This document shows, in pieces, positions 806 through 64,000 of a stretch of 64,000 nucleotides of DNA. Under the pieces are notes generated by a model. It saw only the letters and a program-made list of their open reading frames with translations, ran no database searches and had not been told where the DNA came from. The position numbers were made by a program, and so were the translations under genes. The number at the start of each line of letters is the position of its first letter. The stretch's first letter is position 1. The DNA is from Hypanus sabinus (Eukaryota): assembly GCF_030144855.1 (NCBI RefSeq), contig NC_082706.1, positions 34,286,001 through 34,350,000 of the forward strand, given 5' to 3'.

Positions 806-48750
<47,945 letters not shown>

Positions 48751-60318: not shown

Positions 60319-60730
60319 TGTTGTGGTTTCTCGTCCCCACAAATGACCAGGAGATGCAGAAGATTCTTCAAGAAGGGTTAAACTTTAATTTGCAAATCAA
60401 AGCTGAGACAGTCAGTGAGCTGGTCGCTGATTGCCCACCGATCCTTGTACATAGCATTTTTTATAGCAATTTCCTGTTTTAGTTGCATTAGCATATCCAA
60501 TCTATAGTTGCATATCACAAGTACATCCTCCACTATTGTTTCTAGCATTGACTTAATCATGTTCTAATCTACATCTCTTAGCTAGCCTCTCATTAACACA
60601 CCATTATCTTCTACATTCTTAAGATTTCATTCTCCTGCTAAATTGGATACATGCATAGCAAATAGCAAGCTCAAAGCTGACTACATAGTTCTGGTTACAC
60701 AGCAAACAATGCAACTTTTATACTCCAATA
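60319..60730 (-). repeat. ERV 3' LTR (412 bp)
   Basis: Immediately follows the PPT on the minus strand; starts TATTGG (probably mutated TG) and ends ...CCACAACA; TATAAAA near its 5' end. Confidence 0.7.
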
Positions 60731-60929
60731 TATCCCCCCTTTGAGACCCATACAGAGAAAGAAGACTAAGAGTCCGCGCACAAAAGCCCCAATCAACTCA
60801 AGCACTTATTCCCAAATCTCGGGTTAAACTATAATTTTCTGTGCCAAGACCTCAAAGTATTCTCTCCCTGTTACCCTGGGCCGCTGAGCCAAAAACCTAT
60901 CCCTTTGTACCTGAGACAAGGAAAAAAAC

Positions 60930-61240
60930 TCAGAAGCCCTTCCAATCTACTCCCACACTGTCGTTTTGCTCTTGTTCATCCTGCAGGTGTTGTAGGCTGT
61001 AACGATACATTTTCGGTGTTTCTTTCTCCACTGAGCTTGCTTCAGTAATTGCCACGAGCATCGGAAATTGTTTGGTTGCAGCACGCACTACAAGAGACTT
61101 GAGACAAGGAAGAAAACAGCACAGCACAAACGCATAGCTCAACTATACAATACTGACAGTTATTGCCATTTTAGTCAGCCATGCTCCCCATCCTCCGAGT
61201 CTACTTTCTAACCAGTCAAATAACTGATGTTCGAACCCTG
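60930..61240 (-). pseudogene. ERV env remnant (membrane-proximal region, TM helix, cytoplasmic tail)
   Basis: LFDWLESRLGGWGAWLTKMAITVSIV*LSYAFVLCCFLPCLKSLVVRA just upstream of the PPT. Confidence 0.72.
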
Positions 61241-64000
61241 CATTCTGTGCGCATACCTTGCACTGTGACAAGACAAAGTCCACTGAAGCCTGTAAATAAG
61301 GTGACCACAAACCATCCTTCTTTATTTTCTTTATCCCTTTCTCCCCTTGCACAATGGTCAATCCCATGTGCTTCTGAAATCAGAATCGTCAGTAGAGGGG
61401 TGGGCGCTACCAACAAACCGTCTTCCGTGCTCCACAAGCCTTCCGGGTTCTGCTTGGCCCCCCTTCATCTCCACATTGTCTGTTCTGCTAAAGTTGCCTT
61501 ACCTTGTATTTCAATTAGGTCCTCTACCACAGGTTCTGGAGTTAGGCTTACCTGGGGGGCAATGACAGCTGATGTACATCCAGACGCTTTTCTGGCTGCC
61601 TCGTCCGCAGCTTGATTTCCCTTTGTTATTACATCATTTCCCTTTTTATGTGCCTGGCATTTTACTATAGCCAATGCTTTAGGTTTTATTATGGCTTTTA
61701 TTAAGCCTAGAATTTGCTGACAATGTTGTATGGGATCTCCACTGTTTTTTTTTAAAACCTCTCTGTTTCCACACTGCCCCGAACAAATCAGTATAAATGT
61801 CTACTTTCTCACCTTCCATTATTTCACACGCAGCTGTCAGGGCTTTGATTTCCGCTAGTTGGGCGGAACACGGTTGGGGACAGGACTCCATCCTAATAAT
61901 CTTATAGCTCGACTGATCCTGCTGCACTACTGAGAACCCTGCATGATTTCCATCATAATCCCTATAACAAGAGCCATCTACGAACACAACCTTTTTATCT
62001 ACATCCTCTAGTGGTTCTGACCGTAAATCTGCTCTCAATTTGGCAAATGCCATCGTCTTCCCTACACAATCATGGGGTTCTCTTTCATAGCCCAAAGGGA
62101 CAAAATCGGCTATATTACTGGTAGTGCATCCCTGTATAGTTATGTCTGGAAATGTCAATAGCATCTGATACGCTGCTATCCTGGCCTGCGTCAGCACAAA
62201 TTTCCCTCTTTCCAGCAATTCTGCTACTTCGTGGTGTGTGTACAGAGTCACAGGATAGCCCAGGGTTACAGATGATGCTTTTTCATATGCATAGTACAGC
62301 GCCGCCAATCCCTGATAAAAGGGTGGATACCCCTGAGCCACTTCATCTAGTCTCATACTGTAGTATGCTATCGGCTGCTTTGCTTTTCCTGTGCCTGTCT
62401 CTTGTGTTAGAACCGCTGTGACATAACCCTCCTGTCGGTTGGATGCATACAAATGAAAAACCTTCTCGTAGTCAGGCAAAGCTAATGCTGGTGCTGACCG
62501 CAATTCCTGTTTAATAGTATTGAAAGCTGTCTCCGCCTCTCCATTCCACTGTAAGCCGTTCTTCAAATTTGTATGTCCTGCTTCTTTCATCATCTTTCTC
62601 AAAGGTGCCACAATCTCAGCATATTCTCCTATCCAATCTGAGCTGTACCCTGCCATTCCCAAAAATGTCATCATCTGCCCTACAGTCAGGGGTTTTGGGG
62701 CCTTAGTTATTGCCTCAACCTGATCTGGTGCTATCGCCTTCACTCCCTTGGATATTACCCTGCCTAAGTATTCCACTTGCTGTGTGCAAAATTGCAGTTT
62801 CTTTTTTGATACTTTTTGTCCTCCGTGCGCCAGCTTCTCTAACAGAGTTACAGTGTCCTGCTCACACTGTTCCTTATTGTGGGAACAAATCAAAAGGTCA
62901 TCCACATACTGTAACAATGTACTTTCCAATGGTATGCCCTCTAGGTCTGCCTTCAACACCTGATTAAAAACATGTGGTGAATGTTTAAACCCTTGCGGCA
63001 TTCTGGTATAGGTATACTGAGCACCTCTGTAAGTAAATGCAAACAGATACTAACACTGGTCAGCTAGAGGAATGCTGAAGAAAGCCGAACACAAATCAAT
63101 CACTGAAAAGTAACTTGGAACATTAGTCAAAAGCGTGTATGGGTTGGGGACTACCGCTGGCCAGTCCTCTACCACATCATTTACCGCTCGCAAATCATGT
63201 ACCAATCTCCACTTAGATTTATCTACTTTTAAGACCTGCAGCAATGAAGAATTGCATGGACTGTTTGTTCTTTTAAGCACTCCTATTTCAATCAACCCCT
63301 GCACTGTCAATGCTATTCCCTCTTCTGCTTCTGGTCTTAGAGGGTATTGTGGTCTCCTGGGTGGAATTGCTCCCCTTTTCAGCCTTATTTCCACCGGACT
63401 AGCTGTTTTTATTTTCCCTACGTCCGTGTCATGCTTGACCACAGAATAGATGGCAACTCATCTAACCTATCTTTCTGCTGGCCTCTTTCCTTTCCCAGCA
63501 ATGGCATGTGTGGTTGGGGAGTTATTTCGACCTCTCTCACAGTCCCTACCATATCCACAGTTACCATTATTTTAATGCAATTGTGTCTTCTGATATCCAC
63601 ACCTCTGGCGTGATTTTCCTCCACACTGTTACGGTTTCAGCACTCTTAACTAAGGGTCCTAAGTCCTTAGACTGATATCCCTTGTTTACCAACAACATTA
63701 CGTGGGGCACAGCCTCCGGTACCCTGTACCATTTTTCTAAAAAGGTGTTCCACTTAACTTGTAAAGCTGCCCCTTGCTTTCCAATTATCACAGCCTCCCC
63801 TTCCAGGTGCTGTTGGGTACATGCCTCCAGGTGCCATCTCTCCTCTAACTCCCTGTTCTGAGTCTCGTCAAAAATCACTGTACAATGTAGCTCAGATTTG
63901 GGCATTACAGCCCTGGGTAATATAGCCTGCACACCCTTTTCCCATTTTTCCCAGGTTTCCTGAATCTGATCTGTGATGTCTCCTATCCAAAAGACATTAG
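61240..64000 (-). pseudogene. ERV pol remnant: 2H-like domain, RT, tether, RNase H, integrase N-terminus
   Basis: ORFs 63567-63932, 63418-63624, 63050-63442, 61679-63001, 61465-61674 and 61216-61437, with stops, frameshifts and small deletions. Confidence 0.88.

Follow-up and report, generated by a model that had tools for sequence, protein, structure and literature searches.

A predicted CNPase-like 2H phosphoesterase domain between the protease and reverse transcriptase of a stingray endogenous retrovirus family

Does the endogenous retrovirus at the end of this stretch of stingray DNA carry an extra enzyme in its pol frame and, if so, on what would that enzyme act? The preliminary description of the window (the whole stretch of 64,000 nucleotides of Hypanus sabinus that was analyzed) had proposed, from two histidine motifs upstream of the reverse transcriptase (RT), a 2H phosphoesterase domain that might antagonize 2-5A signaling or, alternatively, process RNA cyclic phosphates. 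At stake may be a step of RNA-end repair during reverse transcription, or a means by which retroviruses counter nucleotide signaling.

In the window copy, the core of the domain lies in a single open frame of the minus strand (63567-63998, 143 aa) that contains all the motifs quoted previously, namely VFWIGDI (63975-63995), ELHCTVIF (63870-63893) and AVPHVMLLV (63687-63713). The coordinates reported for the two catalytic-type motifs, HCT at 63879-63887 and HVM at 63696-63704 (codons CAC GTA ATG on the minus strand), are exact in this frame; the distance separating the quoted motifs, given earlier as about 58 aa, is 52 residues by our count, and the spacing from His to His is 61 residues. A hydrophobic-flanked motif pair 50-90 residues apart occurs only once in the 121,279 six-frame codons of the window. 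The frame ends with a stop at 63567-63569, directly past the domain core, and the last strands of the domain are out of frame, its first residues fall just outside the window end, and the RT of the same copy has more frame breaks. Pfam did not recognize the window domain (best match DUF5797, E 0.14), and sequence searches of the PDB returned chance-level matches only (aprataxin, E 0.5; plant CPDase, E 0.5 on motif 2).

The element around the domain is a decayed class I provirus on the minus strand, and we place the domain between its protease and RT because the protease and the end of gag were found past the window end. That is, the stretch beyond the window (locus L021, about positions 1-2560) holds the 5' LTR, the gag end with one zinc knuckle (one zf-CCHC) and the protease, and within the window the domain is followed by RT, connection and RNase H (61679-63457; PF00078, PF17919 and PF00075, broken by stops and frameshifts), by an integrase N-terminal remnant joined to an env transmembrane tail through an internal deletion near 61245 (61060-61480), and by the 3' LTR (60319-60731). 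The LTRs match at 92.7% identity in BLAST, and the span of the provirus between them, about 6.2 kb, lacks about 1.4 kb of gag, most of integrase and most of env. Two epsilon-like (class I) features, which we took from the available text of PMC3185560 (a one-frame gag-pol with a TAG stop, and a single Cys-His box), are present; a TAG precedes pol in 24 of the 25 copies read. In a poorly resolved tree of 20 RT rows that had no reference viruses or outgroup, the ray element grouped with a pipefish element (100/99). Two probes gave 602 and 559 candidate matches in the genome (96-97% identity for the top 40 from each probe), that is, about 600 candidate copies of the family, and the median LTR identity is 96.0% among the 12 copies with both LTRs measurable. 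The window copy is a dead remnant, one of hundreds. Family-like contigs were also found in sequencing runs of several organisms; the RNA nature of these runs is a guess, and the contigs are uninformative on expression.

To what, then, is the domain related? We modeled the domain with AlphaFold2 on a natural sister, L031, instead of the window copy, together with 79 relatives; the model was of high predicted quality (pLDDT 96.6, pTM 0.90) and presents the two-lobed 2H fold. VIA-align against 48,161 chains placed CNPase at Z 15.8 (rmsd 2.9 over 160 residues), with bacterial CPDase/LigT (Z 8.6-9.7), Usb1 (8.3), Acb1 (7.9) and MHV NS2 (7.9) next, and plant Appr>p CPDase (7.7), rotavirus VP3 (7.1-7.6), AKAP18 (7.3-7.5) and the penguinpox cGAMP PDE (6.5) lower. 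With Foldseek, the listed PDB matches at E<=0.001 were all CNPase or fish RICH. The predicted fold of L031 and the paired motifs thus agree with the original assignment to the 2H phosphoesterases, with CNPase as the closest known structure. In BFVD, two polyproteins of walleye retroviruses and Q2VF30, which we take to come from salmon swim bladder sarcoma virus, matched best (TM 0.81-0.87, E 2e-11 to 2e-7), giant-virus proteins being next, and two of the hits bear the label 'Envelope polyprotein' and are presumably Pol; the top Atlas match was the tRNA-ligase CPD family (0.94).

The likeness to CNPase extends to the sequence. Profile comparison with 47 vertebrate CNPases gave a probability of 93% (E 2.8e-7), the host CNPase exon alone matching the profile weakly (8%), and the alignment is collinear over both motifs, the aromatic residue at Phe235, a Trp and the glycine with which helix alpha7 begins. 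HCT of the window copy aligns with CNPase His230/Thr232 and the second motif with His309/Thr311, and the Phe three residues past the first Thr (63870-63872) corresponds to Phe235, a residue with a base-stacking role in CNPase according to the accessible part of PMC4643303; this column is aromatic (Tyr/Phe) in 84 of 99 relatives. After the second motif there is a predicted helix (63636-63671; 112-123 in the L031 model) that is the putative counterpart of alpha7, with a conserved Gly (63657-63659) aligned to the Gly of the CNPase QTG and present in 96 of 101 relatives. Helix alpha7 is described, in the sections available of PMC4643303 and PMC5283653, as unique to CNPase, as setting its stereospecificity and as blocking the side where viral enzymes bind 2-5A.

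The domain is nevertheless not simply a CNPase. Compared to vertebrate CNPase and fish RICH (PF05881; PDB 2xmi, 1woj, 2i3e), it is shorter (about 165 vs. about 215 residues), shares 12-16% identity with them, scores below the curated PF05881 cut-off (2 of 80 members match, with a best E of 0.011) and is located inside a viral polyprotein, where the protease adjoins it upstream and the PNK-like N-terminal domain is absent. The Arg307 column is mostly Val or Ala and the Val321 column is Lys or Arg in 85 of 104 relatives, and therefore the pocket differs from that of CNPase. The tRNA-ligase (Trl1-type) cyclic phosphodiesterases (PF08302; best E 0.016, in 1 of 80 members) are the family of the top Atlas match, but the ray element has no ligase or kinase partner. 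The 2',5'-phosphodiesterases (MHV NS2, rotavirus VP3, AKAP7) and the Acb1 and poxvirus cGAMP PDEs belong to the same superfamily and have paired HxT/S motifs, but their folds match at Z 6.5-7.9 only and they are described without helix alpha7 in what is available of PMC4643303 and PMC5283653.

A sequence search of 1.84 billion representatives yielded 150 matches at E<=0.001, two of which are repeat artefacts (a word-based homolog search restricted to long proteins gave no match), and the domain, a predicted extra enzyme in retroviral Pol, is kept across more than 100 sequence clusters and is unrecognized by Pfam. Retroviral pol domains were found in 30 of the 33 longer relatives scanned, with a Pfam-unrecognized stretch between protease and RT. 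Both HxT/S motifs are kept in 80 of the 99 relatives covering both, and few columns are as well conserved as those of the catalytic His and Thr/Ser across relatives of 25-45% identity, the range that is also seen to the teleost relatives. The closest named proteins come from the stingray H. sabinus itself (88-90% identical). Among 30 clusters looked up, 13 were named, 12 of them teleost and one ray; hence, of the suggested cartilaginous-fish retrovirus lineage, the cartilaginous host stands and the restriction to that lineage does not. The fish epsilon-like retroviruses (walleye dermal sarcoma virus, walleye epidermal hyperplasia virus 1 and teleost ERVs) show the same fold, and sequence relatives of the domain have the motifs and the position between protease and RT of the ray ERV; unlike the walleye viruses, the ray ERV has a ray host and a simple genome, with walleye-type accessory genes absent from the copies seen (no such ORF was noticed in these deleted copies). 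The earlier remark that 2H domains had already been recorded in fish retroviruses proved correct: excerpts of PMC9503650 (citing Mazumder 2002) report them, including in walleye dermal sarcoma virus, and excerpts of PMC4977317 (citing Basta 2009) mention CNPase encoded by some ray-finned fish ERVs. Position, cleavage and fold class may already be covered in Basta 2009, Mazumder 2002, Fodor and Vogt 2002 and Holzschu 1995; in the literature within our coverage, which excludes most subscription papers, we found no functional test of a fish retroviral 2H domain, and PMC2774666, PMC3185748 and PMC6307210 contain nothing that bears on it.

Comparison of the genomic copies accounts for the Met in the second motif of the window copy. 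We examined 66 loci (39 chosen on the 2H region and 27 on the connection region, after removal of two duplicates and of the second locus of the window itself), of which 65 could be mapped. The first motif is HCT in 53 of these 65, and the second reads HVT in 39, HIT in 9, HVM in 10, HIM in 1 and HVA in 1 (5 unreadable), its last codon being ACG in 37, ACA in 11, ATG in 11 and GCG in 1 (again 5 unreadable). Thr is therefore present at this position in 48 of the 60 readable copies, and its codon is a CpG hot spot that decayed after insertion, as had been proposed for HVM. Among the 59 copies that cover the domain, 33 keep an open frame, 26 of them together with both motifs. For rare variants, every domain is close to neutrality (omega 0.7-1.1, and 0.71 in the 2H domain, with the transition weight fixed at 4), and stops are present. 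Variants common to several copies number 39 synonymous and 20 nonsynonymous (S39/N20) in RT/RNase H vs. S1/N5 in the 2H domain and S1/N2 in the protease; the difference between the 2H domain and RT/RNase H (Fisher P 0.028) is based on few events and on a set in which 39 of 66 copies were picked on 2H likeness. That is, the dN/dS comparison suggested earlier reveals purifying selection in RT and RNase H, and the 2H domain is without such a signal in the shared variants. Selection on the domain may have been relaxed during the last burst.

A Gln-hydrophobic-hydrophobic motif (Gln is found at P2 of walleye virus cleavage sites in the available text of PMC3185560) occurs at 20 of 38 PR/2H junctions; the corresponding counts are 8 of 39 for the 2H/RT junctions and 249 of 1237 for windows of background sequence. 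The two junctions differ at Fisher P 0.0045, a value obtained on related rows, and the motif is absent from 18 of the 38 PR/2H junctions. Motif 2 and the first Trp motif of RT are 86-91 residues apart (39 scored, within a search range of 80-95). Since the Gln motif is enriched at the PR/2H junction but not at the 2H/RT junction, the domain probably remains fused to RT; the pattern is suggestive of a protease cut ahead of the domain and none after it, giving a 2H-RT fusion, although a cut of another type ahead of RT is possible. The proposed release from Gag-Pol as a separate protein is thus unsupported on the RT side, where the motif is found at those 8 of 39 junctions. Overall, we lean slightly toward the domain staying on RT.

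Putting these observations together, we favor, with a probability of roughly 0.5, a Pol-borne, RT-tethered 2',3'-cyclic phosphodiesterase that acts on RNA ends or cyclic mononucleotides. CNPase-type 2',3'-cyclic nucleotide 3'-phosphodiesterase chemistry, as judged from the modeled fold, is the element that we consider likely, and of the two options in the preliminary description, RNA cyclic-phosphate processing would be the better reading by this CNPase-type fold. Under this hypothesis, Gag-Pol would be made by readthrough of the TAG and then packaged, the protease would cut at a site with Gln ahead of the domain and leave its RT side uncut, and the RT-fused domain would act on RNA ends that carry a cyclic phosphate, opening them inside the virion or the reverse-transcription complex. 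The predicted CNPase fold with its alpha7-type helix implies that the attack would yield a 2'-phosphate and a free 3'-OH. The enzyme could then heal ends of nicked genomic RNA or of the tRNA primer that metal-independent RNases may leave; alternatively, it might clear 2',3'-cyclic mononucleotides. RNA-end healing as the selected role is tentative. The substrate is not fixed by the common fold, 12-16% of residues are identical to CNPase, and we know of no reverse transcription step that requires such an enzyme.

Other targets have to be weighed against the immune pathways of the hosts. In the ray genome we found a CNPase gene, an OAS cluster (25 exon matches) and STING; of the host check proposed for OAS and RNase L, the OAS half was thus positive, and RNase L was not found through PF06479 (17 candidates, with two matches that we take to resemble IRE1), from which its absence does not follow. 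With STING in the host and the cGAMP-signaling target also present in teleosts, which would suit the host range, the domain might instead destroy cyclic dinucleotides (2'3'-cGAMP) and so blunt cGAS-STING sensing of reverse-transcribed DNA, a reading that we regard as unlikely. There are 2H enzymes with such activity (Acb1, Z 7.9, Pfam E 0.16; penguinpox cGAMP PDE, Z 6.5), and the basic residue that is conserved at the Val321 site of CNPase might hold an additional phosphate; however, these folds score half of CNPase, and the alpha7-type helix narrows the side that larger 2'-5' substrates use, going by the accessible text of PMC5283653. The fuller scenario, in which a large fish retrovirus clade (rays to teleosts) captured a CNPase-line enzyme, tethered it to the RT N-terminus as a fifth enzyme of Pol and retuned it, through the basic residue at Val321, into a virion-delivered, cGAMP-destroying STING antagonist, appears quite unlikely to us. 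The original lead idea, that the domain degrades 2-5A as a 2',5'-phosphodiesterase and blocks OAS-RNase L in the manner of coronavirus NS2 and rotavirus VP3, is weak, and we hold it the least probable of all. It has in its favor the shared superfamily, the expanded OAS cluster of the host and the existence of OAS and RNase L in cartilaginous fish (PMC10400998, in the part available), but NS2 (Z 7.9), VP3 (7.1-7.6) and AKAP18 (7.3-7.5) align far less well than CNPase (15.8), and the L031 model is predicted to have the alpha7-type helix. Further, according to the same part of PMC10400998, the common ancestor of ray-finned fish lost the pathway, so that in most of the named carriers (12 of 13 clusters being teleost, and the walleye viruses too) there would be nothing for a 2-5A antagonist to act on.

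The two remaining possibilities concern a different nucleotide and no catalysis at all. Action on Appr>p, a known 2H activity (PMC9503650, in excerpt), might be considered in view of the macro domains that some fish ERVs also carry (PMC4977317, in excerpt), but no macro domain was seen in the ray ERV family, the plant Appr>p CPDase reaches only Z 7.7, and alpha7 has been proposed to confine CNPase to 2',3'-cyclic substrates (PMC4643303, available sections), all of which makes this reading very unlikely. A mainly non-catalytic role, as an RNA-binding or scaffold module for RT or as a decoy against host CNPase, would fit the shared variants of the ray family, which are without a purifying signal in the domain, and also the block that host CNPase imposes on lentivirus (HIV) assembly through Gag (cited in PMC5434554, of which a part was available); yet the conservation of the catalytic His and Thr/Ser across relatives as distant as 25-45% identity speaks against it, and we consider such a role quite improbable. 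Hence, the evidence narrows the function to CNPase-type chemistry, probably tethered to RT, and away from 2-5A.

A few additional features of the family and of its surroundings are worth recording. The in-frame fusion of the integrase zinc finger to the env transmembrane tail by deletion is common to 9 of 33 ten-kb copies (L022, L024, L035, L039, L040, L049, L050, L051 and L053), suggesting that a non-autonomous subfamily was copied in trans; the integrase core is retained in other copies, and those looked at (L023, L031, L045 and L047) are also without most of env. Another, distinct ERV (L028:1-1335, minus strand), in which a Gag p30-like region is joined directly to RT, lies in or beside one family copy. 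P0162, a stingray gene model annotated as 'E3 ubiquitin-protein ligase Siah1 isoform X1', shares 90% identity with the protease-2H region and is probably misnamed or chimeric. The OAS genes of the host form a tandem cluster (C31:79.65-79.86 Mb) of about seven to eight genes, with several near-identical units 25 kb apart. Elsewhere in the window there are a long tandem repeat array with several open frames on both strands, of up to 1573 codons (2648-7373), the long ORFs (823, 215 and 291 aa) of another retroelement, Gypsy-like by eye (17753-22321, plus strand), and a LINE, L1-like by eye, with ORF1-like, endonuclease-like and RT-like frames (28867-34454, minus strand).
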